DNA of 64,000 nucleotides from Patescibacteria group bacterium (GTDB lineage: Bacteria; Patescibacteriota; Patescibacteriia; JACRDY01), in contig JBAZFH010000002.1 in NCBI GenBank assembly GCA_041653535.1, forward strand, positions 257,235-321,234, in the 5' to 3' direction. The position numbers were made by a program, and so were the translations under genes. Positions 5,250-50,704 of the stretch are shown here, one piece after another (position 1 is the first letter of the stretch; each line of letters starts with the position of its first letter). The notes under the pieces are model-generated. The model searched no databases and was not told the DNA's origin. It worked only from the letters and a program-made list of their open reading frames with translations.

Positions 5250-6019
5250 CTATGATTACCATAAAAACAGAAAAAGAAATCAGAAAGCTCGCTTATAGCG
5301 GCAAGATTTTATCAAAAATTTTGAGACATTTGTTTTTAGAATCAAAGCCAGGAGTAACCACGGCGCAGATTGACGAGATTGCCGAGAGAATGATTCGCGA
5401 AGTCGGCGGCACACCGGCTTTTAAAAATTACCAAAGTTCTCACAACGATCCGCCTTTTCCTTCCACTATTTGCGCTTCAATAAATAATCAACTGGTTCAT
5501 GCGCCGGCATCGCCAATAAAAAAATTAAAATCAGGCGACATTTTTACTATTGATATCGGCATGGAATACGAAGGTCTGTATACCGATATGGCAGCAACGA
5601 TAACGATAGGAAAAGTTCCGGCACGAGTTAATAAATTGATCAAAGTAACCAAAAAAAGTCTTGAAAACGCTATTAAGCAAGTGAAGCCAGGAAATACCGT
5701 TGCCGATATTTCTTACGCCGTGCAGAGTTATGCTGAAAAAAATGGCTTCGCGGTAGTTAAAGAATTAGTCGGGCATGGCGTCGGTTACGCGCCGCACGAA
5801 GAGCCGATGATTCCTAATTTTGTGGCCATTCATCAGCCAAAAATAGAATTAAAACCAGGAATGGTTTTAGCTATTGAGCCGATGTTAACAGACGGTACTG
5901 ACCGGGTGAAGTTTTTAGATGACGGTTGGACGGTGGTGACAGCCGATGGATCAATGTGTGCTCACTTTGAACATACGGTAGCGGTAACAGAAAAAGGCTG
6001 TCAAATTTTAACAAAATAG
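5246..6019 (+). CDS. map: methionine aminopeptidase type I
   Basis: MetAP fold motifs (FTIDIGMEYEGLYTDMA, GHGVG, EPM). The start overlaps the adk stop. Confidence 0.9.
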   Translation: MTMITIKTEKEIRKLAYSGKILSKILRHLFLESKPGVTTAQIDEIAERMIREVGGTPAFKNYQSSHNDPPFPSTICASINNQLVHAPASPIKKLKSGDIFTIDIGMEYEGLYTDMAATITIGKVPARVNKLIKVTKKSLENAIKQVKPGNTVADISYAVQSYAEKNGFAVVKELVGHGVGYAPHEEPMIPNFVAIHQPKIELKPGMVLAIEPMLTDGTDRVKFLDDGWTVVTADGSMCAHFEHTVAVTEKGCQILTK

Positions 6020-19214: not shown

Positions 19215-19248
19215 TTAGTGTGTTAGTATGTGTATAGAATACACTAAG
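19215..19248. promoter_or_regulatory. palindromic operator candidate TTAGTGTgttagtatGTGTATagaATACACTAAG immediately upstream of nrtR
   Basis: Nested inverted repeats (GTGTAT-N3-ATACAC inside TTAGTGT...ACACTAA), ending 7 nt before the nrtR ATG. Related to the site before pnuC. Confidence 0.5.
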
Positions 19249-19255
19249 ATAAAAT

Positions 19256-19933
19256 ATGGTCAAGAAATTAACCAAAAAATACAAATTTGCCACTATTGCT
19301 ACCGATGTGGTTATTTTTACCATCAAAGACGAAAAGCCGCAGGTACTACTGATTAAGATGAAGAAAAAACCTTTTGCTGACTCGTGGGCAGTACCGGGCG
19401 GGTTAGTACATGGTGATGAATCGGTTGACCGAGCGGCACGCCGTCATCTTTTTTCTAAAACCGGTCTCAAAGACGTTTATCTCGAACAGCTTTATACTTT
19501 TGGTAGTGTTGATCGCGATCCTTTTGGTCGGGTAGTGTCGGTTGCTTATTTTGCCCTGATTCCGAATGCCGACTTGAAACTAAAAACCACCAGTGAATAT
19601 GCCGGAGTGCAATGGTGTCCGGTAGATAAATTGCCAAAACTTGCCTATGACCACAAAGAGGTGGTGAGTAAAGCGGTAGAAAGACTGCAGGCTAAACTTG
19701 GTTATACCAATATTGTTTTTGGGCTGCTACCGCCAGAGTTTACTTTGTCGGAGCTACAAAAGACTTACGAAATAATACTCGGTAAGAAATTAGATAAAAG
19801 AAACTTTCGCAAAAAATTGTTTAGTCTGAAACTGGTGCAAAGTACCGGTGGTCGCAAAGCGGGGGATGCTAATAGACCGGCTGAGCTTTATCGTTTTGCC
19901 AGCAAACACCCGCAGCTAATCGAGATCCTTTAA
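19256..19933 (+). CDS. nrtR: Nudix-related transcriptional regulator NrtR-like (degenerate Nudix domain plus C-terminal winged-helix region)
   Basis: Nudix-like segment GGLVHGDESVDRAARRHLFSKTGL. Length about 225 aa. It heads a pnuC-nadR operon, the classic NrtR context. Confidence 0.55.
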   Translation: MVKKLTKKYKFATIATDVVIFTIKDEKPQVLLIKMKKKPFADSWAVPGGLVHGDESVDRAARRHLFSKTGLKDVYLEQLYTFGSVDRDPFGRVVSVAYFALIPNADLKLKTTSEYAGVQWCPVDKLPKLAYDHKEVVSKAVERLQAKLGYTNIVFGLLPPEFTLSELQKTYEIILGKKLDKRNFRKKLFSLKLVQSTGGRKAGDANRPAELYRFASKHPQLIEIL

Positions 19934-19958: not shown

Positions 19959-19977
19959 TAGTGTAATAAATACACTA
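19959..19977. promoter_or_regulatory. palindrome TAGTGTA-ataaa-TACACTA upstream of pnuC (candidate NrtR box)
   Basis: Perfect 7-bp inverted repeat with a 5-nt spacer. Shares GTGTA...TACAC half-sites with the nrtR-upstream site. Confidence 0.5.
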
Positions 19978-20016: not shown

Positions 20017-20601
20017 ATGAGTATCTTTGAAATCATCGGAGTGATATTTGGTGTCTGGTCAGTATATCTGACTGTAAAACAAAAAGTACTCAGTTGGCCG
20101 GTGGGGCTAGTCAGCGTCGTGGCGCTAGGCATAATGTTTTTCCAGATAAAACTTTACGCTGATGCCATGGAGCAGATTTATTACGTCATTACCGGCTTTG
20201 TCGGCTGGTATCTATGGAAATATGGGGGAGAGAAAAAAAGCGAACTAAAGGTTTCGCTACTAAACAACAAGCAGCGAGTGATCGGCGCCGGGATTGTCTT
20301 GGCACTATCAGCAGTACTTGGATATTTGCTCGACACTTATACCGACGCTTCACTGCCTTATCTGGATTCAGTCACTACAGTCATGAGTCTATGCGCGCAG
20401 CTACTGCTCACTAAAAAGATTTTCGAAAACTGGATTTTATGGATTATCGTCGACGTCATGGCACTTGGTATTTATACCTATAAAGGCGTCTATCTGACTA
20501 CCGGTCTTTACGTCATTTACCTAGTATTAGCTAGCGGCGGTTTTGTGCAGTGGTATAAATCACTAGTCGCTAACAAAAAGTATGTCAAAGAAACCATCTA
20601 A
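20017..20601 (+). CDS. pnuC: nicotinamide riboside transporter PnuC
   Basis: About 194 aa, 7-TM pattern. N-terminus IFEIIGVIFGVWSVYLTVKQKVLSWPVGLV is typical of PnuC. Confidence 0.75.
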   Translation: MSIFEIIGVIFGVWSVYLTVKQKVLSWPVGLVSVVALGIMFFQIKLYADAMEQIYYVITGFVGWYLWKYGGEKKSELKVSLLNNKQRVIGAGIVLALSAVLGYLLDTYTDASLPYLDSVTTVMSLCAQLLLTKKIFENWILWIIVDVMALGIYTYKGVYLTTGLYVIYLVLASGGFVQWYKSLVANKKYVKETI

Positions 20602-21649
20602 AAATCAAACTACTGGACTCGTGCTCGGCAAATTTGCTCCGTTTCACGCTGGGCACCAGTATCTGGTGGAAACCGCAATCAAGCAAACCGACAGGGTGAT
20701 TGTCCTGATTTACAATTGTCCGGAAACAATCGATATACCGCTTGATGTCCGTGCCGAATGGATTCGACAAATTTATCCGCAAGTGGAAGTGATAGAGGCT
20801 TGGGATGGACCGACCGAGTCAGGGCACGATCCGCGAGTGATAAAATTAAACGAAGATTATATTTTGCAAAAAATAAAAGAGCCGATCACGCATTTTTTTT
20901 GCAGTGAGTGGTATGGCGATCATGTTAGCAAGGCGCTTGGCGCTATTAACTGCGTGGTGGATGAGAAAAGAGAAACTTTTCCGGTGTCGGGAACGATAAT
21001 TCGTTCCAACCCACATGTTTACAAAAAATTTTTACATCCGGTGGTTTACAAAGACTTTGTAAAGAAAATTGTTTTTCTTGGTGCCGAGTCAACCGGTAAA
21101 ACCACCATTACTAGAGAGCTAGCCAAAATTTACAAAACCGAGTGGATGCCGGAACTAGGCAGAGAGTATTGGGAAAAAAACCAAATAGACGGAAAACTCT
21201 CGGAAGAGCAGCTGCTAGATCTAGCCTATCAGCATATAGAAAAAGAAGAAGAACTCCTTTTACGAGCGAACAGATATTTTTTTGCTGATACTAATGCTAT
21301 AACCACGGCAATGTTTTCCCGCTATTATCACGGTCATATCCATCCGCAACTGGAGTGTCTGGCAAGAAGAGTGGAATCTCGCTACGATTTGTATTTTGTT
21401 TGTGATATAGATATCCCTTATGAAGACGATGGTGCCAGGTCCGGCGCCGATCACAGACTAATTTTTCAGCAGCAGATAATAGAGGACCTAGAAAGAAGGG
21501 GGATAAACTATATTTTACTTCGTGGCGACTTGGGACAGCGGATGAGACGGGTAAGAGAATATCTAAACATGCTAGAAAAAGATCAAAAAATAGAGGAGAA
21601 TATTGGTTTTTTCTTGTATTTTAGTAAGATGTTAAGACAATTTGGCTAA
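20582..21649 (+). CDS. nadR: bifunctional NMN adenylyltransferase / ribosylnicotinamide kinase (NadR-like, no HTH domain)
   Basis: N-terminal (H/T)xGH motif GKFAPFHAGH (compare H. influenzae NadR GKFYPLHTGH). C-terminal P-loop kinase IVFLGAESTGKTTITRELA. Confidence 0.7.
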   Translation: MSKKPSKNQTTGLVLGKFAPFHAGHQYLVETAIKQTDRVIVLIYNCPETIDIPLDVRAEWIRQIYPQVEVIEAWDGPTESGHDPRVIKLNEDYILQKIKEPITHFFCSEWYGDHVSKALGAINCVVDEKRETFPVSGTIIRSNPHVYKKFLHPVVYKDFVKKIVFLGAESTGKTTITRELAKIYKTEWMPELGREYWEKNQIDGKLSEEQLLDLAYQHIEKEEELLLRANRYFFADTNAITTAMFSRYYHGHIHPQLECLARRVESRYDLYFVCDIDIPYEDDGARSGADHRLIFQQQIIEDLERRGINYILLRGDLGQRMRRVREYLNMLEKDQKIEENIGFFLYFSKMLRQFG

Positions 21650-21824
21650 ATCTTGACATTTTATATCTATTATGTTAAGTTTTGGGGTTAGAGCTGACGG
21701 TATTTAACACGTAGAAAAACAAAGAAAAAAGTAGCTAAAATCTGGCTAATTTTTTCTAGCTTTGATTGCAAATATCAAGGCTGAAGTGAACATTAAATTC
21801 AAAAACGAAGAAGGGAGGATATAG

Positions 21825-22622
21825 ATGGATGTTTTGTCTCGAAACAATGGGGTAACGACGATAACTTCGGATAGGGGTTTTACCAAGTCGTTTGCTCCGG
21901 GTCGGGTGTTTTTGCCCGATGAGTATCCGGAAGTGCTGCAGAAGTTTCTGCAGGGTCCAAACGTCGTGGTCATCGGCTTGACCGGCTATTCGTCGATCAA
22001 GTCCGAGCATTGTGCTCGTTGGGGGATTAAGCCCGGCGCTTATGAGTATGCGGTTCATAGCATGCTTACCAATTTAGTGAATGAACTGCGTACCGCCTAT
22101 CCCGGCATCGATATTCGCTTTGTCCACGGCGCTTCGGATATGGGCGTGGACAAGGAAGTTATTGCAGTCGGTGAAGAGCTTGGTGTCCCGCAACTCGGAT
22201 TTTCTTGTCCGGAATTTCTGTCATACGTCGACAACGAAAATCATGACTTTCCGATCTACGTCGGCGCCGATCAAGCGGACTACTCGGACAAGTTCATCCA
22301 GGCACTCGATATTCTAGTTGCGGCCAATGGTCGTAAGCAGGCGTTCATCCACGATATGTCGGCGGCGCTTAGCCACGCTAAATACATCGTGCCGATCAAT
22401 ATCGTGCAGGCGATTTCCAGTACTGGTGGTCCGGCAGCCATCAACGAAGACGGTACGATCGAAGACGCAACCGAGCTGTTTTATCAGCGGGTTGTCTATT
22501 TAGCTATCCAGTTTGGCATCGCCGGACAGGATGTCTGGGCTGAGCTCAACCAGAAACTTACCCAGGCGATCAAGGCAATCACTCGTAAGATTTTGCCGGC
22601 AAACGCTGCTTTTCCTATTTAA
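21825..22622 (+). CDS. hypothetical Rossmann-fold protein, SLOG/DprA/LOG-like (nucleotide-binding)
   Basis: VVVIGLTGYSS...FVHGASDMGVD...LGFSCPEF resembles the DprA/SLOG glycine-rich loops (compare DprA in this window: LAVVGTRR...SGLARGIDSTAH...LGTGLD). Embedded in the NAD island. Confidence 0.3.
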   Translation: MDVLSRNNGVTTITSDRGFTKSFAPGRVFLPDEYPEVLQKFLQGPNVVVIGLTGYSSIKSEHCARWGIKPGAYEYAVHSMLTNLVNELRTAYPGIDIRFVHGASDMGVDKEVIAVGEELGVPQLGFSCPEFLSYVDNENHDFPIYVGADQADYSDKFIQALDILVAANGRKQAFIHDMSAALSHAKYIVPINIVQAISSTGGPAAINEDGTIEDATELFYQRVVYLAIQFGIAGQDVWAELNQKLTQAIKAITRKILPANAAFPI

Positions 22623-22661
22623 CCGTTGATGATAGTCACACGAAAGGAAAGGAGATTTCCG

Positions 22662-23411
22662 ATGAAAAATGTTACTATTGGTCCGCATGACGCGGTCATT
22701 GCCGTCGATTTGTTTCAGAAGGCTTTTCGCTTCGGTGGCGGATTGCCGATAGTGGGCGGTGATGGTTTGGTTATTCCGGCGATTAACTTTATTTCCCTGC
22801 CGTGGGGATATGTTGTTGCCAGTATTGACCAGCATCAGCTGGGAAATATTTCTTTCGCCAGCTCGTACCGAAACGTGCCGGTACCGAAAATCGGTTATCC
22901 GGAAATAACCCTGGAGATGGTACGGAAAAACTGGGCGGATTATTACGTCGGTCCGGCTGCCAAGTTTACCGCGAAGCAGTTGGTTGATTATTTGGAAAAC
23001 GTCGTTTCCTGCTCGCAGGTTCTCTGGCCGAACCATGGTACGGTCGAAGCCGGTGACGGTGTTATTAGTCCGCCGTTTATCGAAGTGTCGCTCGACTACA
23101 TTCTGTTCAAGGGAACAGATGTGTTATGTGACAGCTACTCCGCTTTTGTCGACAATCTCGGTCGTCCGACCGGTCTTGCCGATGAATTGCGTCGATGCGG
23201 TATTAAGCGCGTTTTTTTGATTGGACTTGCTTTCGACTATTGCGTCGGTTGGTCAGCGCTCGACGGCGTGAAGGAAAGTTTCGAGGTCTACATTGTTGAA
23301 AATCTGACCAAGTCGGTCGGCTTTCCGGCTAATTCGGTCGAAGCGATGCGCGAGCAGCTTCTCGCGACCGGGGTGAAAATCATCACCACCGCCGACATCT
23401 CGACGATGTAA
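22662..23411 (+). CDS. pncA: nicotinamidase / isochorismatase-family hydrolase
   Basis: Catalytic-Cys context FLIGLAFDYCVGWS (compare PncA GIATDYCV). RBS AAGGAG before the ATG at 22662. Confidence 0.65.
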   Translation: MKNVTIGPHDAVIAVDLFQKAFRFGGGLPIVGGDGLVIPAINFISLPWGYVVASIDQHQLGNISFASSYRNVPVPKIGYPEITLEMVRKNWADYYVGPAAKFTAKQLVDYLENVVSCSQVLWPNHGTVEAGDGVISPPFIEVSLDYILFKGTDVLCDSYSAFVDNLGRPTGLADELRRCGIKRVFLIGLAFDYCVGWSALDGVKESFEVYIVENLTKSVGFPANSVEAMREQLLATGVKIITTADISTM

Positions 23412-23457
23412 AAAAAACAACACGTGCGGAGGGTGCTCTACGGAGTACCTTCCGCCC

Positions 23458-23520
23458 TAGAAAATTTGCACCAAAGAAATTTGGTTCAAGCTTTCTGGTC
23501 ACAACCACACGGCTGCGGCC
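23458..23520 (+). promoter_or_regulatory. conserved about 60-bp promoter/operator module, copy 1; core 24-bp palindrome TTGCACCAAA-GAAA-TTTGGTTCAA at 23466-23489
   Basis: AGAAAATTTGCACCAAAGAAATTTGGTTCAAGCTTTCTGGTCACAAC... Near-identical copies at 24750-24812 and 26380-26440. Each copy follows a GC hairpin and precedes a gene start by about 80 bp. Confidence 0.6.
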
Positions 23521-23600
23521 TAAAATGTTCTTTAAATTTCAGTTACTCATAAATCAACCAACCAACTTTTGTCCAAAAAAGTTCAGAAAGGGGATAGAAA

Positions 23601-24701
23601 ATGGTGAACAGAAGTAGGGAAGATTTTTTGCTTAGCCGTGTTTACGCGGCGCTCGTTGGTCTATGGATCGGCGATGGCATGGGTATGCCGGTGGAAATGA
23701 TGACACCGGAGCAGATCAAAGAGACAGTCGGTCGAGTCACTGGGTTTATTACGCCGGTGCAAAGGCATATCGGAGGCACGGCCTTCCTTCCGGCAGGTCA
23801 CTGGACCGATGACTGGCAGTTGGCGCGCGCTATTTTGCGGTCGCTAGTTGAATCTGGCGGCTACAACATCAATGATATCGTCGGGCAGCATTTGCTCGCC
23901 CTGAAAGAATCGACCATAGGATGGGGCAAGGCGACCAAAAACGAGCTTCTGAATATCCAGCGGTTTTTCGAAACCGGTGGGACCGAAGGTCGTAATCCAG
24001 CCACTTCGCCGCAGTTGATCGCCGGCCAGGGTACTGGCAATGGCGTGGCGATGAAAATCGCTGCGCTCGCGCTGTACCAAGTGTTGAAACAAGGCGGCTT
24101 TTATCGGCTGCCGCTCGTTACCCAAGTGAAAGAAGTGGGTCTACTGACTCACGCTGATCCTCGGGCGAGCGTTGCGGCGTTTGCTGTCGCCGCGGTGATT
24201 GGCATGGTTATGGAAAAGCCTTTTGAGCTTTTTTGGCCTGCCAAAAAATTTCAGCAGCAAAGGTTTTTGCGGCGGCTGATCGCTCTGACCGAATGGGCCG
24301 AGCAAGACGGTGGTTTGAAAAGCGTCAATTACACTGACCAGTTTTTTTCCGAAGCACTTGGTTATCTGGCTAGCAACAATGGATTACTCCTCGAAGGGTC
24401 GGAATATTTGCGCAAAATCGGTACGAACTGTTTCGCCTTGAATTCGGTGCCGTTTGCAATCGGTGTATTCTTGCGTCACCCGACAGACTTTCGCGCTGGA
24501 GTGCTTGAAGCGATCAACGCCGGCGGCGATACCGACACGACCGCGGCCATGGTTGGCGCGATGATCGGAGCCAACGTTGGTTTGGAAGGTATTCCTCTGG
24601 AGTGGCGACACTTTTTGATGGAACACTATAGCGATGACTACGGCGAATTGCTTTCCTTGGGCAGTGCGCTTTTCATGCAGGCCACGGGGAAGGTTGAGTA
24701 A
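23601..24701 (+). CDS. ADP-ribosylglycohydrolase family protein (DraG/ARH-like)
   Basis: N-terminal ALVGLWIGDGMGMPVEMM (the G.xGDAxG.P.E metal-site motif) and C-terminal GGDTDTTAAMVGAM. Confidence 0.7.
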   Translation: MVNRSREDFLLSRVYAALVGLWIGDGMGMPVEMMTPEQIKETVGRVTGFITPVQRHIGGTAFLPAGHWTDDWQLARAILRSLVESGGYNINDIVGQHLLALKESTIGWGKATKNELLNIQRFFETGGTEGRNPATSPQLIAGQGTGNGVAMKIAALALYQVLKQGGFYRLPLVTQVKEVGLLTHADPRASVAAFAVAAVIGMVMEKPFELFWPAKKFQQQRFLRRLIALTEWAEQDGGLKSVNYTDQFFSEALGYLASNNGLLLEGSEYLRKIGTNCFALNSVPFAIGVFLRHPTDFRAGVLEAINAGGDTDTTAAMVGAMIGANVGLEGIPLEWRHFLMEHYSDDYGELLSLGSALFMQATGKVE

Positions 24702-24749
24702 CTAAACAAACACGCGGCGGGCGTCTTTATAAAAAGGGCGTCCGCCGAC

Positions 24750-24812
24750 AGAAAATTTGTACTAAAGAAATTTGGTTCAAGCTTTCTAGTCGTAACCAAG
24801 GTTGTGACTAAA
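24750..24812 (+). promoter_or_regulatory. conserved promoter/operator module, copy 2; palindrome TTGTACTAAA-GAAA-TTTGGTTCAA at 24757-24780
   Basis: CAGAAAATTTGTACTAAAGAAATTTGGTTCAAGCTTTCTAGTCGTAACCAAGGTTGTGACT, with a downstream hairpin AGTCGTAACC/GGTTGTGACT. Confidence 0.6.
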
Positions 24813-24854
24813 ACGAACTTTACAACAAAATTTTTACGATAAAGGAGCAAAAGG

Positions 24855-26333
24855 ATGAAAATCGACAAAAATGACATTGCGGTTTACGGCGGCAGTTTTA
24901 GCCCGCCGGGAAACCACCATGTGAAGGTAGTGGAGGTGCTAATCGAAGCAGGGTTTCGGCGAATCATCGTCGTTCCTTGCGGCTATCGCGATGACAAAAA
25001 AACCCGAACTAACGACATCGAAAAACTGCATCGAGCAGTAATGTCGGATATGGCTTTTGGTCATTTGCCCGGTGTCGAGGTCGACCTGTTTGATCTTGAA
25101 AAAGACGTTTTTACCAGAACGTGGGATTTGGAACGTCGTTACAAAAACCAGGGTCGGGTTTGGCACGTCATCGGCGCTGATATGATCATCGGCGGGCGCG
25201 CTGGTGAGTCGGAAATCCAGCGGGAATGGGAACACGGCCGCGAACTGTGGAACAAGTCCAACTTCGTGGTTTTCACCCGTGATGGCTACAATCTTTTGAA
25301 AGAAGATTTACCGCCGCATAATGTGGTAATGACGGCAGCGGTAGAGACTGCAAAATCCAGTACGGAAATTCGGCGCGCTATCGCCGCTCACGAATCAATC
25401 GCTGATATGACCCCGCCGCTAGTGACGGATTATATCGAAAGATATCGTCTGTACAGTGCTGGGTTAACCGTGCGCAGCGGAGAAATAAATATTCATTCGC
25501 CGCGCCTTTTGATTATTTCTGATCCGGATAATTTGCGGGCGCAAGAGATAGCACGATATTTTTCGCGCTTTGCTTGTCCGCAAAAACCGAATATGATTTT
25601 GGTTGTCGGCGGCGACGGCACGATGCTGCGGGCGGTCAGAGAAAATTGGCGAAAACGTTTGCCGTTTTTTGGTATTAACGCCGGTCATCTGGGATTTTTG
25701 CTCAACCGTATCGAGGCATTGCCGGAAGAGTGGGAAGACGTTTTTGTTTCGCCATTTGTAGTGCATCAGTCGCCGTTGCTTTACGTGGAAACACGAAAGC
25801 ATCTGCATGATTGGAAAGGCGCTTTTGCCGTCAACGATGCCTGGGTGGAGCGGCAGACGCTGCAAGCCGCCTGGATCGAGCTGATTGTTCGTCAGCGCGC
25901 CAACGGTCATGTGACAACCGAAGAGTGGCATCTGGATAAACTGGTCGGTAATGGCGCGCTTGTTTCCACGGCAGCCGGGTCGACCTCTTATGCCCAACCG
26001 ATGGGTGCTCCGGCGATGTTAGTCGGTTCACCGCATTTGGTCTTGGTGGGAGACGATGTAAAATTTCCTGCCAACTGGGAGTATTCGACATTGGACTTGA
26101 ATCAAGAAGTTGAAATGGTCGGTTTGGACGGTAAAAAACGTCCTTTGCGTGGTTCGGTCGACGGTGTGGATTTGGGTCGAGTTCAAGCCATGCGGGTTCG
26201 TACTTCCAACATCGCCGCCGCCGAATTTGTTTTTGTCAAAGGGCAAGACCTGGCAGGAAAATTGGAAGAAATCCAATTTCCCGGAGCGATCAGTTCATCG
26301 GGCTGGCGCAAGAGGCCGACGACAAATTCGTAA
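24855..26333 (+). CDS. fusion protein: N-terminal nicotinate/nicotinamide-mononucleotide adenylyltransferase (NadD/NMNAT-like) plus C-terminal NAD+ kinase (NadK)
   Basis: N-terminal VYGGSFSPPGNHH (cytidylyltransferase (H/T)xGH motif). C-terminal NAD kinase motifs VVGGDGTMLRAV, INAGHLGFL and GSTSYAQPMGAP (GGDGT / NxGxLGFL / DGxxxxTxxGSTAYSxSAGG). Confidence 0.65.
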   Translation: MKIDKNDIAVYGGSFSPPGNHHVKVVEVLIEAGFRRIIVVPCGYRDDKKTRTNDIEKLHRAVMSDMAFGHLPGVEVDLFDLEKDVFTRTWDLERRYKNQGRVWHVIGADMIIGGRAGESEIQREWEHGRELWNKSNFVVFTRDGYNLLKEDLPPHNVVMTAAVETAKSSTEIRRAIAAHESIADMTPPLVTDYIERYRLYSAGLTVRSGEINIHSPRLLIISDPDNLRAQEIARYFSRFACPQKPNMILVVGGDGTMLRAVRENWRKRLPFFGINAGHLGFLLNRIEALPEEWEDVFVSPFVVHQSPLLYVETRKHLHDWKGAFAVNDAWVERQTLQAAWIELIVRQRANGHVTTEEWHLDKLVGNGALVSTAAGSTSYAQPMGAPAMLVGSPHLVLVGDDVKFPANWEYSTLDLNQEVEMVGLDGKKRPLRGSVDGVDLGRVQAMRVRTSNIAAAEFVFVKGQDLAGKLEEIQFPGAISSSGWRKRPTTNS

Positions 26334-26379
26334 AAATCAAACAAGTGGAGGGTGTTACCATAAGGCGCGCCCTCCACTA

Positions 26380-26440
26380 TAGAAAATTTGCACCAAAGAA
26401 ATTTGGTTCAAGCTTTCTGGTCACAACTACGGTTGCGGCC
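26380..26440 (+). promoter_or_regulatory. conserved promoter/operator module, copy 3; palindrome TTGCACCAAA-GAAA-TTTGGTTCAA at 26388-26411
   Basis: Identical to copy 1 over about 45 nt. Preceded by hairpin GTGGAGGGTG...CGCCCTCCAC. Confidence 0.6.
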
Positions 26441-26504
26441 AAAAAAGAACATTACAATAAACCAAAGGAAAAACAGTAATAATTGCGAGACAAGGAGAAA
26501 AAAG

Positions 26505-27761
26505 ATGAGACATCGAGATAAGCCTATTATTCAGTCTCTATTGGATATGGATTTTTACAAATTTACCATGGGTCAGTTCATTTTTCGTTATTATCCTGAC
26601 CTGCAGGTCAGGTTCGCTTTGACCAACCGTACCAAAAGCGTGCGTTTGGCTGACATGATTGACCTGGGACAACTGCGAGAAGAACTGGAACATTTGCGTA
26701 GCTTGCGGTTTACCAAAAGTGAACTGCATTATCTTCGTGGCACCAACGAGTACGGCGATCGAATGTTTGGTGAAGATTATCTCACCTTTTTGTCCGAACT
26801 TCGTATGCCCGAATTTCATTTGGAAAAGCGAAGCGATGGGCAAATTAATCTCTGGTCCGAAGGCGACTGGCCCTCGGTCTCTCCTGGGGAAACCCCCGGT
26901 CTGGCTATCTTGGCCGAACTGTACTGTCGGCATCTGACCAAAGACATGACCCGTTTCGAGCTCGAAGCGGTTCGCGCCAACGGCATCATGCGTTTGCAGG
27001 AAAAACACCGCAAGTTGCGCCAGTATCCGTTTATTAAATATTCGGATTTTGGTCATCGGCGCCGTGCTTACCGGGACTGGCATGATTTCGTTGTTAGTGT
27101 CGAGGCTGAAGAAATGGCTGGACAGTTTCTCGGTACTTCCGATGCTTGGCTGGCCATGAAATACGGTCTTCTTCCTATGGGCACCAATGCTCATGAGTTG
27201 GGAATGGTGATTGCGGCATTTTTGGCTATCACGGAAGGTGACGCCGGTATCCTGCGCGCCAATCGCGAGATCGTCGATAAGTGGTGGCAGATGTATGGTC
27301 AGGGTCTGTCGATTGCCTTGCCCGACACTTTCGGCTCGGATACTTTTTTGCAGACAATGAACGGTCTCGACGCGGTGAAATGGAAGGGTTTCCGTCACGA
27401 CAGCGGTGACCCGATCGAATTCGGCGAAAAGATCATTAATTTTTACGAAGGGTTCGGTGTTGATCCGCGAGAACACATAATCGTCTTTTCCGACGGTCTC
27501 AATGTGGACGAGATTATTCGTCTAGCCCTGCACTTCAAGGACAGGATCAAGGTGTCTTTTGGTTGGGGTACGACTCTGACCAATGACCTGGGTTTCAAAA
27601 ACCTGTCCATTGTCATCAAGGTGGCTTCGGCTAACGGCCAACCGGCGGTGAAACTGTCTGACAATATCGCCAAAGCGGTCAGTCCGTCGCCGGAAGAGAT
27701 TGAACGTTACAAGCGTTTGTTCGGCTACCATGCGCAGTTCGAAGTGGTTCCTACGGTTTAA
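26505..27761 (+). CDS. pncB: nicotinate phosphoribosyltransferase
   Basis: N-terminus IIQSLLDMDFYKFTMGQ plus NAPRTase core. RBS AAGGAGAAAAAAG before the ATG at 26505, which is in frame with the longer ORF-track call. Confidence 0.8.
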   Translation: MRHRDKPIIQSLLDMDFYKFTMGQFIFRYYPDLQVRFALTNRTKSVRLADMIDLGQLREELEHLRSLRFTKSELHYLRGTNEYGDRMFGEDYLTFLSELRMPEFHLEKRSDGQINLWSEGDWPSVSPGETPGLAILAELYCRHLTKDMTRFELEAVRANGIMRLQEKHRKLRQYPFIKYSDFGHRRRAYRDWHDFVVSVEAEEMAGQFLGTSDAWLAMKYGLLPMGTNAHELGMVIAAFLAITEGDAGILRANREIVDKWWQMYGQGLSIALPDTFGSDTFLQTMNGLDAVKWKGFRHDSGDPIEFGEKIINFYEGFGVDPREHIIVFSDGLNVDEIIRLALHFKDRIKVSFGWGTTLTNDLGFKNLSIVIKVASANGQPAVKLSDNIAKAVSPSPEEIERYKRLFGYHAQFEVVPTV

Positions 27762-27988
27762 CAATGTTCCCGGGCATCCCATGTGGTGCCCGGTTCTGAC
27801 CAGGGAAGAGTAAAAATGGCACGCGGCACGAAGCACGTGGCAAAAAAAATGGCACGCGGCGAGCCTACGCAGCCGTGCGCTATTTATTCATCCTGGTCAG
27901 GAGAAAGCAGTACTTTGAAAATTTAAACAAAAAAATCAATTCACGTTTTTTTTCGTTTAAGAAAATACGAAGAAAGGAAGGTGGTTAA

Positions 27989-30040
27989 ATGAAGGCAGAT
28001 CGTTTTCTTGATATCCGTAATCATGGGTTTTTTCGTGTGGCAGCGGTAATTCCGCGGGTGTTTTTGGCTGACCCCAAGGTAAACGGCGAAGAGCACCTGA
28101 AGGTTTTACGGACATTGTACGACGAGGGCGTTATGTATGCTGTTTTTCCGGAGCTTAGCCTGACGGGTTATAGCAACGGAGACCTTTTTCAGCAAAAGAT
28201 TTTGCTGGAAGAGGCTCTGACAGAGCTGAAATTTTTGGTTAGCGAGACTGCCAGTTGGTCGATGATTATTACGGTTGGTATGCCGCTTTTGATCGAAGAT
28301 CAACTTTTTAACGTCGCCGTGACTTTTTGTCGCGGTGAGGTACTGGGTATCGCGCCGAAAAGCTATCTTCCCAACTATCGCGAATTCTATGAAGGACGGT
28401 GGTTTACCAAAGCTGCCGATGCTCGGAAAAAGGAAGTCGAGCTTTTTGGTCGAATGGTTCCTTTTGGTGCTGACGTTCTGATTCGTTCGACGTTAAATCG
28501 GAATTTCATTCTTCACACCGAAATTTGTGAAGATATCTGGGTACCGATTTCTCCCGGCGCTATCGCGGCGATTTCCGGAGCTACCGTACTCGTCAATTTG
28601 TCGGCGTCTAATATTACTATCGGTAAAACGGAATATCGTCGGCAGTTGGCTCTTAATTCGTCGGGTAAAAACGTCGCCGCTCAAATTTACGTCGCTGCCG
28701 GTTTTGGCGAATCGACCAGTGATTTGTCTTGGGATGGCAGCGCATTTGTCGCTGAGCGTGGTACCATGCTCAGCGAATCAAAGCGTTTTCAGATGGAAAG
28801 TCATTATATCATTGCCGATGTCGACGTTGATTCTCTGCAGACGGAAAGAGCGCGGCAAAATTCTTTTCAGGAAAACGCGGCGGTTTATCGGCAGCCGATG
28901 CGTATGGCGGTGGCGGAAGACAAGTCCGTTCCGGACTTCCTTAATACCTATGTCTTTGATGAATTGCGGCGTAATATTGAGCCGCAGCCATTTGTGCCGT
29001 CGGACCCGACTCGTCGTAGCGAACGATGCTACGAAACATTCAATATCCAGGCAGGAGCGTTGGCACAGCGCTTGCTCCAGTTTCCGGTTGAAAGCCGCAA
29101 AATCGTTTTAGGGGTTTCCGGAGGGCTGGATTCGACCCACGCTTTTTTGATCGCGGCTCATACCATGGATATCATGGGTTTGCCGCGCAGCAATATTTTG
29201 GCGGTAACTATGCCGGGGTTTGGGACAACGGGTCGGACGTATCATAATGCCGTTGCCTTGATTAAAGCAATCGGTGCTACGTTCTATGAGATTCCGATCA
29301 AGAATATTTCAACTGTCATGTTTGAAAACATCGGCTATGATCCCTCTTTGGAAGGGGATAAAAAAAGCTTGGTGTTTGAAAACGTGCAGGCCTGGGAACG
29401 GACAATGACACTCTTCTCGGTTTCGGCCAAAGAAGGTGGTATTGTTCTTGGCACTGGTGATCTGTCCGAACTGTTAATCGGCTGGGCGACCTATGGTGGT
29501 GATCACATGTCCCACTACGGCGTCAACGCCGATGTGCCCAAAACCCTGATTCGCTATTTGGTGTCTTGGGCGCGGGACGAGATTTTTGCCAAAGAAGCGC
29601 GGGTTCAGACGGTCCTCAATGACATTTTGGACACTCCGGTTTCGCCTGAATTATTGCCGACTACCAGGGATGGCAATATTGCTCAGAAGACCGAAGACAT
29701 TGTCGGTCCATATGAGTTGATCGACTTTTTCGGATATTGGATCGTTCGTTTTGGTTTTACGCCGTACAAGGTGGCGCGCCTGGCATTGCATGCTTTCGAC
29801 GGCAAATACACTATCGGCGAAATCAAAAATTGGCTCGGCTACTTTGTTGACGATGACGGAAAAAAACATCTCGGTTTTCTCCCGCGGTTTTTCCGCAATC
29901 AGTTCAAGCGCAACTGTTTACCGGACGGACCCAAGGTTGGTCTTACTTCTGTTTCGCCTCGTGGCGACTGGCGTATGCCGTCGGATGCGCGCGTAACTTC
30001 CTGGATGGACAGCTGGGAGGAGATTCCCTATTTATATTAA
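27989..30040 (+). CDS. nadE: glutamine-dependent NAD+ synthetase (nitrilase-like domain plus NAD synthetase domain)
   Basis: N-terminal CN-hydrolase domain (FPELSLTGY, catalytic ICEDIW) and C-terminal PP-loop VLGVSGGLDSTHAF. Confidence 0.85.
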   Translation: MKADRFLDIRNHGFFRVAAVIPRVFLADPKVNGEEHLKVLRTLYDEGVMYAVFPELSLTGYSNGDLFQQKILLEEALTELKFLVSETASWSMIITVGMPLLIEDQLFNVAVTFCRGEVLGIAPKSYLPNYREFYEGRWFTKAADARKKEVELFGRMVPFGADVLIRSTLNRNFILHTEICEDIWVPISPGAIAAISGATVLVNLSASNITIGKTEYRRQLALNSSGKNVAAQIYVAAGFGESTSDLSWDGSAFVAERGTMLSESKRFQMESHYIIADVDVDSLQTERARQNSFQENAAVYRQPMRMAVAEDKSVPDFLNTYVFDELRRNIEPQPFVPSDPTRRSERCYETFNIQAGALAQRLLQFPVESRKIVLGVSGGLDSTHAFLIAAHTMDIMGLPRSNILAVTMPGFGTTGRTYHNAVALIKAIGATFYEIPIKNISTVMFENIGYDPSLEGDKKSLVFENVQAWERTMTLFSVSAKEGGIVLGTGDLSELLIGWATYGGDHMSHYGVNADVPKTLIRYLVSWARDEIFAKEARVQTVLNDILDTPVSPELLPTTRDGNIAQKTEDIVGPYELIDFFGYWIVRFGFTPYKVARLALHAFDGKYTIGEIKNWLGYFVDDDGKKHLGFLPRFFRNQFKRNCLPDGPKVGLTSVSPRGDWRMPSDARVTSWMDSWEEIPYLY

Positions 30041-49858: not shown

Positions 49859-50383
49859 ATGAAATTTATTATTGGTCTTGGTAACCCTGGTAGGGAATAC
49901 GCCAAGACGCGACACAATTTTGGTTGGTTGGTGCTGGACGCGCTAGCTGGCGCTAGCAAATGGCAAGAAAAAATCACCGCCAAAGTTTTTATTTTAGAAA
50001 AGGAACTGAGCGGTAAAGACATGGTACTAGCAAAACCGACAACTTTTATGAATCGTTCTGGCGTGGTATTAAATTATATCAAGAAGAAATATCCAAAGTT
50101 TAAAAAATCAGATTTGGTGGTGGTCCATGATGATAAAGATTTAGACTTTGGTCGAATAAAGGTTTCGCACGATTCAAGCTCTGCTGGGCACAACGGCGTT
50201 CAGTCGATTATTGACGCGCTCGGCAGTAAAGATTTTACCCGTATTCGTTTGGGTGTAAAAAATGATTTGCTAACAAAAATGCCGACGGATAAATTTGTTA
50301 TCGGTAGATTTACAGCCGAAGAAAGTAAAAAACTCGACGGTATTATCAAAGAGGCGACTGAAGCCCTGGAAAAAGAAATTTAG
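49859..50383 (+). CDS. pth: peptidyl-tRNA hydrolase
   Basis: N-terminus MKFIIGLGNPGREYAKTRHNFGW is the canonical Pth start. Confidence 0.85.
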   Translation: MKFIIGLGNPGREYAKTRHNFGWLVLDALAGASKWQEKITAKVFILEKELSGKDMVLAKPTTFMNRSGVVLNYIKKKYPKFKKSDLVVVHDDKDLDFGRIKVSHDSSSAGHNGVQSIIDALGSKDFTRIRLGVKNDLLTKMPTDKFVIGRFTAEESKKLDGIIKEATEALEKEI

Positions 50384-50704
50384 TCAAAAATTTTTTGGAC
50401 AAAAACAAAACCCCCGAAAAAAATCAGGGGTTTTGTTTTATTTGGGTTAAACGAACAAGACGTATTTTATACGCCTGCTAGCCGGCGCAAGATCGGGTCA
50501 GAAAAATCCGACCAACCTTGACTTGCCGATTACTATCCGAAAATAGGAGGGTATTCTCGAATTTCATCGCCGGCAAGACGACGTACAAAATTTTAAAATA
50601 AAAAGTTTAGAATTATTTAATATTTAATGTAATAGAATATATTAGCATAATAGAAAATAATTGTCAATATTAGTTGTTTTAAAATATTTAAATTTAGATA
50701 AAAT

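Follow-up and report, generated by a model that had tools for sequence, protein, structure and literature searches.

Our literature search for riboswitches of the NAD pathway found two classes only, NAD+-I and NAD+-II. The first, also known as the nadA motif of Acidobacteria, is a cis-acting 5'-leader RNA made of tandem bulged stem-loops, each with a ACANCCCC bulge (PMC7297122). The second, the pnuC motif of Streptococcus, combines P1-P1a with a pseudoknot that includes the ribosome binding site, and occurs almost exclusively before pnuC (PMC7749635). At the DNA level, the locus described here encodes the regulator NrtR (Pfam), whose operators are inverted repeats before NAD genes. Repeated irregular hairpins between successive cistrons of one transcript are also found in the early mRNA of phage T7, as intercistronic RNase III processing sites that are neither tied to a pathway nor conserved across distant genomes.

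Here we describe a repeated element of Patescibacteria that is very probably a cis-acting, pathway-specific RNA, judging from the comparison of its copies within and between genomes. In the window (the whole 64-kb stretch of DNA analyzed), it is present as three near-identical copies and a diverged fourth one, all in a single NAD island (Table 1). A sequence-only reading had reported three modules built around a 10-4-10 inverted repeat and followed by a second hairpin, and these are all present: the 24-mer AAAGAAATTTGGTTCAAGCTTTCT occurs exactly three times, always on the + strand, where none is expected (100 shuffles), and in copy 1 it consists of TTGCACCAAA (23466-23475), GAAA and TTTGGTTCAA (23480-23489). 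The conserved unit reaches further, past the second hairpin (H3) to a tail box.

Table 1. Features of the NAD island and comparison sites in the window (E-values come from custom covariance models R1-R3 and are rough; SLOG fold is a prediction)
Feature	Position	Strand	Remarks
NrtR boxes	about 19224-19248, 19959-19977		before nrtR and pnuC; GTGT..ACAC core, overlap promoters
Promoter	21653-21681	+	sigma-70-like, TTGACA-17 nt-TAAGTT; serves orf265-pncA-ARH-nadDK-pncB
Copy 4	21722-21798	+	promoter-proximal, diverged; upstream of orf265, then pncA; R2 35 bits; R3 54.5 bits, E 4.6e-8
Copy 4 H2	21723-21757	+	
Copy 4 H3	21758-21782	+	
Copy 4 tail box	21788-21798	+	GAACAUUAAAU
orf265	21825-22622	+	SLOG fold
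pncA-like isochorismatase	22626-23411	+	Pfam
H1 of copy 1	23426-23455	+	GC-rich 13-bp hairpin just past pncA stop codon; A-tract 5', no U-tract 3'
Copy 1	23458-23537	+	upstream of ARH; R1 E 8.8e-6
Copy 1 H2	23459-23496	+	holds the 24-bp palindrome
Copy 1 H3	23497-23520	+	
Copy 1 tail box	23527-23537	+	GUUCUUUAAAU
ADP-ribosylglycohydrolase (ARH)	23601-24701	+	Pfam
H1 of copy 2	24715-24747	+	GC-rich 14-bp hairpin past ARH stop codon
Copy 2	24749-24825	+	upstream of nadD-nadK; R1 E 2.6e-6
Copy 2 H2	24750-24787	+	
Copy 2 H3	24788-24809	+	
Copy 2 tail box	24815-24825	+	GAACUUUACAA
nadD-nadK fusion	24855-26333	+	Pfam
H1 of copy 3	26345-26377	+	GC-rich hairpin past nadD-nadK stop codon
Copy 3	26380-26457	+	upstream of pncB; R1 E 8.7e-7
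Copy 3 H2	26381-26418	+	
Copy 3 H3	26419-26440	+	
Copy 3 tail box	26447-26457	+	GAACAUUACAA
pncB	26505-27761	+	Pfam
Rejected R1 match	28179-28225		inside nadE coding sequence; seen with R1 only
Canonical terminator	50381-50440		A-tract and U-tract both present

Each instance of the motif folds into two unlike hairpins. H2 is a 17-bp irregular hairpin of about 37 nt (36-38 nt in most instances) whose basal 8 bp are conserved in sequence (5'-AGARAAUU / AAUUYUCU-3'), while its upper stem varies in sequence and keeps its pairing, with a mid-stem position that is often non-canonical. H3 is a 10-bp hairpin (UGYCY...RGRCA) that abuts H2 with zero linker. The tail box (consensus G-N-W-C-N-U-U-N-A-M-A) lies 1-7 nt past H3, and an A/C-rich unstructured spacer of 20-60 nt separates it from the Shine-Dalgarno (SD) sequence. 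This order of H2, H3, tail and gene is invariant across instances. For a fourth, small hairpin or a major-groove triplex involving the tail, the pairing registers proved inconsistent, and an apparent correlation with column 5 can be put down to the L009/L011 lineage. Most invariant nucleotides of the motif sit in helices rather than in loops or bulges, which is not so typical of an aptamer for a small molecule and would be in keeping with a protein-binding site or processing signal.

Homologues were sought with covariance models (CMs). Five instances in two other genomes, and no sequence from the window, went into model R1; its three best window matches are copies 1-3, full length and on the + strand, with E-values of 9e-7 to 9e-6 that, like all those of our custom models, are rough. 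Altogether, we found the motif 23 times in 15 Patescibacteria genomes that are deeply divergent, with PncB identities of 49-68% between them. Every one of the 23 instances lies in sense orientation ahead of an NAD or ADP-ribose gene. The gene that follows encodes PncB (5 instances), NadK (4), NadD (3), a NadD-NadK fusion (2), a Nudix protein (3), ARH (1) or a nicotinamidase/isochorismatase-like protein (5, two of them assigned by BLAST clustering alone); for these counts it should be noted that copy 4 of the window directly precedes orf265, and pncA comes next. The AlphaFold2 model of the orf265 product (pLDDT 89) matches, in Foldseek, the ADP-ribose-binding N-terminal domain of TRPM2, LOG proteins and the nucleosidase PpnN. 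No credible CM match was found beyond NAD/ADP-ribose genes in the 64-kb window or in about 1 Mb of related loci; these loci had been gathered around pncB, and the gene association is therefore partly ascertainment-biased. Two further window matches were discarded as false positives, one in nadE and the other (50381-50440, - strand) an ordinary bidirectional terminator. The closest homologues of nadD-nadK (45-49% identity) belong to non-CPR genomes and lie in TonB/ExbBD-type contexts, and the motif was found in none of three non-CPR nadD-nadK loci. One syntenic, GC-rich island (L008) gave no CM match and shows a possible degenerate form by eye only, and the L081/L084 instance is itself GC-rich. 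The small, pathway-specific regulon that the sequence-only reading had proposed within the NAD island is thus borne out, with all four window copies there and homologues before NAD/ADP-ribose genes.

This distribution also bears on whether the copies could be a generic intergenic repeat, of the REP/MITE or terminator-unit kind, or else encode a small RNA on the minus strand. The three copies are similar enough to break short-read assembly: the Logan contig L001, 2.9 kb long and identical to the window, ends at window positions 23476 and 26409, exactly at the repeats. Nevertheless, the 64-kb window contains only four copies, none of them outside the NAD island, and homologues are likewise limited to NAD genes. 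When 185,579 species genomes, which do not include that of the source, were scanned for an exact 19-mer, only six single matches turned up, all in unrelated taxa; we attribute them to chance because none fits the CM. As to a minus-strand RNA, a U-rich run does follow the GC-rich hairpin H1 on that strand, but minus-strand folds are weaker and the G-U bias favors the + strand. Judged from the window and the related loci, both possibilities appear scarcely credible.

The sequence-only reading had taken the palindrome for an operator bound by a dimeric transcription factor, which would be a second class of NrtR site or belong to another regulator, and had considered a cis-acting RNA less likely. 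A near-perfect inverted repeat, conserved outer boxes (AGARAATT/AATTYTCT) at nearly constant spacing and the presence of NrtR in the island do fit an operator, and since H2 length is nearly constant, spacing alone does not exclude a DNA site. Comparison of homologues points the opposite way, as the inner arms and H3 retain pairing and not sequence, even between copies of the same genome. In a MAFFT alignment of 16 instances, double-sided changes occur at 21 of 27 pairs, and 87.2% of cells are paired, versus 37-54% after sliding the partners by 1-3 columns; these values were reached by none of 500 shuffles. The pattern repeats on 18 and 22 CM-aligned instances (overall 21-22 of 27 pairs, 87-89% paired). 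Within the window, eight compensatory double changes distinguish copy 4 from copies 1-3, and compensatory double changes are seen elsewhere between the copies of one genome (two to five of them among the L011 copies, two among the L098 copies). In all, the arms of same-genome copies differ by 1-8 such substitutions. Such within-genome compensation cannot be explained by operator half-sites that co-evolve with a transcription factor.

Strand evidence leads in the same direction. G-U/U-G cells number 43 versus 22 A-C/C-A cells, about 8 of the latter coming from one conserved A-C column, and well-scoring copies reach 51-73 bits on the + strand versus 22-37 bits for their reverse-strand echoes. 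The asymmetric H3 and tail are always on the gene side. The earlier objection to an RNA, drawn from the strand preference of H3 in copy 1, fails across 22-23 homologues. A promoter of the form TTGACA-16/17-TAnnnT precedes 6 of 18 instances, with the motif past the -10 box at a variable distance (1-40 nt), and the remaining 12 instances follow the GC hairpin of the upstream cistron with no promoter nearby. The promoter of the window is the only good match upstream of any of its four copies, and copy 4 lies 40 nt downstream of it. Inside the module, we found no consistent -35/-10 pair; the tail box resembles a -35 or a -10 element depending on the copy, and its partner is never at the right spacing. 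NrtR boxes, although they share the island, the pathway and the inverted-repeat form, differ from the motif in their sequence and overlap promoters, as the earlier reading had recognized for their sequence, whereas the motif is a structure predicted to be transcribed, in which the stems covary and a second hairpin and a tail follow. Kept pairing, within-genome compensation, G-U excess, gene-ward orientation and the position past the -10 box thus fit a transcribed RNA structure rather than a DNA operator, which we consider very improbable.

The hairpins H1 that precede copies 1-3 had been described as GC terminators. The hairpins are real in all three cases, and that of copy 2 displays compensatory differences relative to the others, but they are followed by no U-tract on the + strand and are therefore not canonical intrinsic terminators, of which the source genome offers an example for comparison (Table 1). 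In H1 of copy 1, the fold is more stable on the + than on the - strand because of G-U pairs. Neither did a consensus scan reveal an intrinsic terminator at the modules themselves, where H2 and H3 are AU-rich and followed by A-rich sequence. Such an arrangement raises the possibility of a constitutive processing or stability module devoid of metabolite sensing: H2 and H3, which abut and together amount to a quasi-continuous helix of some 27 bp, would be the site of an RNase III-type or other endonuclease that separates cistrons, and H1 would then shield the 3' end of the upstream mRNA. The intercistronic copies with H1 immediately upstream, the lack of a linker between H2 and H3 and the absence of an expression platform are all consistent with it, and the tail box may be likened to the A/U-rich single strand beside a stem that RNase E-type enzymes prefer. 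We nonetheless regard this option as improbable, as a generic signal would not be limited to NAD genes in 15 divergent genomes, nor be missing where other cistrons of these operons and loci meet, and the motif is also found right after promoters, where there is no cistron to separate. The T7 hairpins, to which the motif is similar in its repetition between cistrons, differ in the same respect: the motif is tied to one metabolic pathway and conserved across distant genomes.

The motif combines features generally expected of riboswitches, namely a covarying secondary structure and a sense-strand leader position before genes of one pathway. It matches no Rfam 15 family: the scans gave only tRNAs and noise at gathering thresholds over the whole window and eight related loci, and at E<=10 only far-sub-threshold matches to unrelated families (window 23380-23620; L083 9780-10010). 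With NAD+-I it shares the association with NAD biosynthesis genes and two tandem, modest irregular stem-loops. However, its hairpins are unlike each other, the ACANCCCC bulge is found in 0 of 23 instances (regular expression, -40 to +100), there is no SD-containing second domain, and it belongs to salvage and ADP-ribose genes of Patescibacteria instead of nadA in Acidobacteria. The link to salvage is common to NAD+-II, but the motif precedes pnuC in none of the 23 instances, its pairing with the SD is not above chance, and pnuC in the window has an NrtR box instead.

We conclude that the repeats are most likely metabolite-sensing riboswitches or, alternatively, leaders bound by a protein. In the second case, the helix bases and the tail box would form the site of a pathway-specific RNA-binding regulator, either a moonlighting NAD enzyme or Rossmann-fold protein or a dedicated protein. 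Its binding, tuned by an NAD-related ligand, would govern the translation or the decay of the individual cistrons. The evidence from structure, strand and associated genes serves both readings equally, and a sequence conservation concentrated in paired regions and one single-stranded box, together with the lack of an alternative-pairing platform, would suit a bound protein. No candidate RNA-binding protein consistently co-occurs at motif-bearing loci, however: the families common to them are enzymes, NrtR, PP2C and proteins of about 622, 350 and 260 aa, and an RRM protein adjoins the motif in one locus only (L099). In addition, most pathway-specific metabolic leader motifs studied to date turned out to be riboswitches, a record that favors the latter. 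We therefore hold a protein-bound leader to be rather unlikely. Direct binding of a small molecule by the element, with no protein as intermediary, is a good possibility, slightly on the doubtful side.

That this leader RNA binds a ligand is an inference, as are the direction in which it regulates and the step at which it acts. Presumably transcribed together with the NAD-salvage and ADP-ribose genes, on their sense strand, it would sense the state of the NAD pool at the junction of the H2 base, the H3 base and the tail. This junction most likely binds an NAD-related metabolite directly, with NAD+, NaAD, NaMN and ADP-ribose as candidates. One copy per cistron could allow individual tuning of the steps from Nam to NA, NaMN, NaAD, NAD and NADP, and of ADP-ribose recycling. 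Neither MFE folding nor duplex statistics revealed an expression platform, Rho- or RNase-based platforms being invisible to such methods: the SD is free in most leaders, tail-SD and P1-tail complementarities are no better than in shuffled controls (p about 0.3), and no stem with a U-tract lies downstream of the motif. As no terminator or SD-sequestering helix was found, an output through mRNA stability or processing, Rho or ribosome loading appears more likely than classical attenuation. We tentatively propose, as a possibility somewhat short of probable, that the motif represents a third, structurally unrelated class of NAD-pathway riboswitch, which would sense NAD+ or one of these intermediates cistron by cistron and act through such a non-classical output.

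The case illustrates that near-perfect palindromes which resemble operators in a single genome can be RNA hairpins, and that the two are told apart by comparing copies across and within genomes. If the motif binds a metabolite, the two known classes would be joined by a new NAD-related aptamer fold, and the range of riboswitch ligands and architectures would widen; a true third NAD class would be the first that we could find tied to the candidate phyla radiation, and its deployment at each cistron without a recognizable expression platform could point to another kind of output mechanism. Lacking de novo NAD synthesis, Patescibacteria rely on salvage, and to our knowledge very little is known of regulation of any kind in this group. 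A conserved RNA before each salvage gene would offer a direct and testable way into the cofactor homeostasis of these uncultivated bacteria.

The intergenic regions upstream of the ADP-ribosylglycohydrolase (ARH), nadD-nadK and pncB genes carry the three modules described by the sequence-only reading (copies 1 to 3), and their invariant 24-mer, AAAGAAATTTGGTTCAAGCTTTCT, occurs three times, always on the + strand, where 100 dinucleotide-preserving shuffles led us to expect none. When the three regions are aligned, the repeat proves longer than first stated: from 5' to 3', the stop codon is followed by an A-rich stretch, the GC-rich hairpin H1, the 38-nt hairpin H2 with the palindrome inside it, and H3, a hairpin that abuts H2; an A-rich linker then leads to a conserved box. 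On the + strand these regions fold with z-scores of -6 to -7 relative to shuffles, and on the - strand more weakly. Scans with successive covariance models (CMs R1, R2 and R3) uncovered a fourth copy, which scored 35 bits with R2 and 54.5 bits with R3 once copy 4 itself was included in the model. A locus from an independent short-read assembly (L001, SRR18595300) is 100% identical to window positions 23476-26409 and ends exactly within copies 1 and 3; assemblies of the source organism, a Patescibacteria MAG whose contig here spans 323 kb, are thus broken up by the repeats.

Features of the NAD island and related elements in the window (gene assignments from Pfam)
Feature	Position	Remark
NrtR-type palindrome	~19224-19248	GTGTATAGAATACAC
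NrtR	19256-19933	Pfam
NrtR-type palindrome	~19959-19977	TAGTGTAATAAATACACTA
PnuC	20017-20601	Pfam
NadR-like NMNAT/kinase	20582-21649	Pfam
Promoter	21653-21681	upstream of copy 4
Motif copy 4	21722-21798	found by CM scans
orf265	21825-22622	no Pfam match
Isochorismatase (PncA-like)	22626-23411	Pfam
A-rich run	23412-23425	5' of H1
Motif copy 1	23458-23520	
ADP-ribosylglycohydrolase	23601-24701	Pfam
A-rich run	24702-24714	5' of H1
Motif copy 2	24750-24812	
NadD-NadK fusion	24855-26333	Pfam
A-rich run	26334-26344	5' of H1
Motif copy 3	26380-26440	
PncB	26505-27761	Pfam
Stable intergenic structure	27762-27990	no Rfam match
NadE	27989-30040	Pfam
Canonical terminator	50381-50440	with U-tract

Loci fetched around the nearest PncB homologues contain a syntenic NAD island, and their intergenic regions hold elements that differ in sequence from the window modules and share their outline: AGAGAAUU, stem, loop, complementary stem and AAUUCUCU, followed directly by a second hairpin, UGCCUYAAAA...UUUUGAGGCA. 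The best three window matches of R1, built solely from five instances in two other genomes, were copies 1 to 3, at full length on the + strand (E 9e-7 to 9e-6), which establishes homology independently of the window sequence. Across 80 PncB-centred metagenome loci and four further CPR loci, the scans gave a total of 23 instances in 15 genomes, including Candidatus Sungbacteria (GCA_016181625.1) and Candidatus Paceibacterota (GCA_041671265.1); the hosts are deeply divergent, with pairwise PncB identities of 49-68%. No match came from three nadD-nadK loci outside the CPR or from about 65 further pncB loci. One instance (L081 405-467, identical with L084 9881-9943) lies on a 387-kb contig of a 60% GC genome, so the range of the motif may extend beyond low-GC Patescibacteria. 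When one genome per species was scanned with a 19-mer, only six isolated matches were returned, all in unrelated bacteria, and these were ruled chance.

The search in related genomes also bears on the pathway specificity that had been proposed: all 23 instances lie before NAD or ADP-ribose genes, an association that is partly a product of ascertainment since the loci were gathered around pncB. The downstream gene is pncB in five cases, NAD kinase in four, nadD in three, nadD-nadK in two, a Nudix gene in three and ARH in one. The remaining five are nicotinamidase or isochorismatase-like, counting two without Pfam match (L021 and L100) that were assigned by BLAST clustering with isochorismatase-like proteins, and window copy 4, which has orf265 directly downstream and pncA next. 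No other gene class was found behind the motif, though each locus holds about 20 genes. On the loci scanned, a generic repeat or an antisense sRNA is, in our view, very unlikely. Many CPR loci (L008, L009, L011, L097, L099 and L100; e.g. L099 3424-9005) have a conserved gene string beside their NAD-salvage genes. It encodes NrtR and a PP2C phosphatase together with three proteins of ~622, ~350 and ~260 aa, of which the first is uncharacterised, the second isochorismatase-like and the third weakly VWA-like; the motif typically starts right behind the ~260-aa gene. At a single locus, from Sungbacteria, a gene for an RRM_1 RNA-binding protein lies directly 3' of pncB (L099 11452-11772).

Several other features of the window's island deserve mention. 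Homologues of orf265, from Uhrbacteria for instance, are hypothetical CPR proteins. Its confidently predicted structure (pLDDT 89) resembles the TRPM2 N-terminal ADP-ribose-binding domain, LOG phosphoribohydrolases, a molybdenum cofactor carrier and the PpnN nucleosidase; the fold it shares with the TRPM2 domain, LOG and PpnN is the SLOG fold. Because of this match orf265 fits the NAD/ADP-ribose theme, and the model indicates that it is probably a related nucleotide-binding or nucleosidase protein. The closest homologues of the window proteins are 58% identical for PncB and 49% for NadD-NadK. Those of the fusion (45-49% identity) occur in non-CPR genomes (L093, L094, L096), next to TonB/ExbBD/MacB genes and outside any NAD island, which suggests horizontal acquisition. 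The pncB-nadE intergenic region folds into a structure that is unlike the motif and very stable (-78 kcal/mol across 229 nt), in which a long-range stem, CUGACCAGG/CCUGGUCAG, surrounds two direct repeats of AAAAUGGCACGCGGC.

The repeated palindrome had been read as a dimeric transcription-factor operator, and covariation leads us to replace this interpretation with a structured RNA. A first test, on a MAFFT alignment fitted to no structure, showed changes on both sides in 21 of the 27 pairs of a two-helix model; 87.2% of the cells were paired, as against 37-54% with partners slid by 1-3 columns, and none of 500 column shuffles came up to the observed values. The picture is the same for CM alignments of 18 and of 22 sequences. 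Copy 4 differs from copies 1 to 3 by eight compensatory double substitutions, and other genomes too show such changes between their own copies (2-5 among the three L011 copies, two in L098), a pattern that co-evolution of half-sites with a factor would not yield. G-U pairs outnumber A-C (43 vs 22, about eight of the latter from one conserved A-C position), again arguing for RNA. So does polarity: H3 and a tail box (consensus G-N-W-C-N-U-U-N-A-M-A, 1-7 nt 3' of H3, present in 21 of the 23 instances and as a variant in the other two) lie on the gene side, and reverse strands score 22-37 bits against 51-73 for well-scoring forward copies. The earlier argument against RNA, drawn from the minus-strand preference of H3 in copy 1, is correct for that single copy but is outweighed by the family; the mismatch at the fifth pair of this hairpin recurs in several further members (4 of 18-22 instances). 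We therefore regard a DNA operator as very improbable. In L011, before nadD-nadK, an inserted GC-rich hairpin of ~40 nt (5796-5840) separates H3 from the tail box, so the box can be displaced without loss.

Among 18 instances, six, including copy 4, lie 1-40 nt 3' of the -10 box of a good sigma-70-type promoter (TTGACA-16/17-TAnnnT), and the other 12 come after a strong GC hairpin belonging to the preceding gene, with a U-tract in some genomes. In the window, the GC hairpin claimed before each module exists, but without the U-tract of a canonical terminator. Since no promoter was found there between H1 and the next gene either, the string orf265-pncA-ARH-nadDK-pncB is probably co-transcribed from the promoter upstream of copy 4, with one motif copy before each unit. 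With A-rich runs 5' of H1 and no U-run 3' of it, H1 would be terminator-like only for antisense transcription.

Overall, the element is very probably a pathway-specific cis-regulatory RNA. MFE folds left the SD unpaired in most leaders, complementarity of the tail to the SD or to the 5' strand of P1 (the conserved H2 base) was no better than with shuffled tails, and no stem followed by a U-tract was found downstream; these analyses thus revealed no expression platform. Action as a constitutive processing or stability module appears improbable. Conserved nucleotides concentrate where the H2 base, the H3 base and the tail meet, a spot at which one would expect either a ligand pocket or contact with a protein. 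Direct sensing of a metabolite has perhaps slightly less than an even chance, and a leader RNA bound by a protein seems rather unlikely.

Full-text searches of the literature brought up two classes of NAD+ riboswitch, NAD+-I and NAD+-II (PMC7297122; PMC7749635). The ACANCCCC bulges that characterise the tandem stem-loops of NAD+-I (nadA motif, Acidobacteria) occur in 0 of 23 instances, and the motif lacks the P1-P1a and RBS pseudoknot found before pnuC in NAD+-II (pnuC motif, Streptococcus; PMC7749635). No Rfam 15 family, the NAD+-I and NAD+-II models included, matched the modules. The palindrome is also distinct, as had been proposed, from the NrtR boxes, which have other sequences at other genes. 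The candidate element, riboswitch- or leader-RNA-like in its working, is thus outside every described family that could be tested. Searches for CPR or NAD-salvage RNA motifs found nothing relevant, and no published description of this one came to light; the earlier observation is confirmed and extended. As the NrtR palindromes overlap the nrtR and pnuC promoters, the island has two regulatory layers, DNA (NrtR) for nrtR and pnuC and a candidate RNA for the salvage enzymes. On comparative sequence evidence, the latter is a structured RNA, supported by covariation and specific to patescibacterial NAD salvage.
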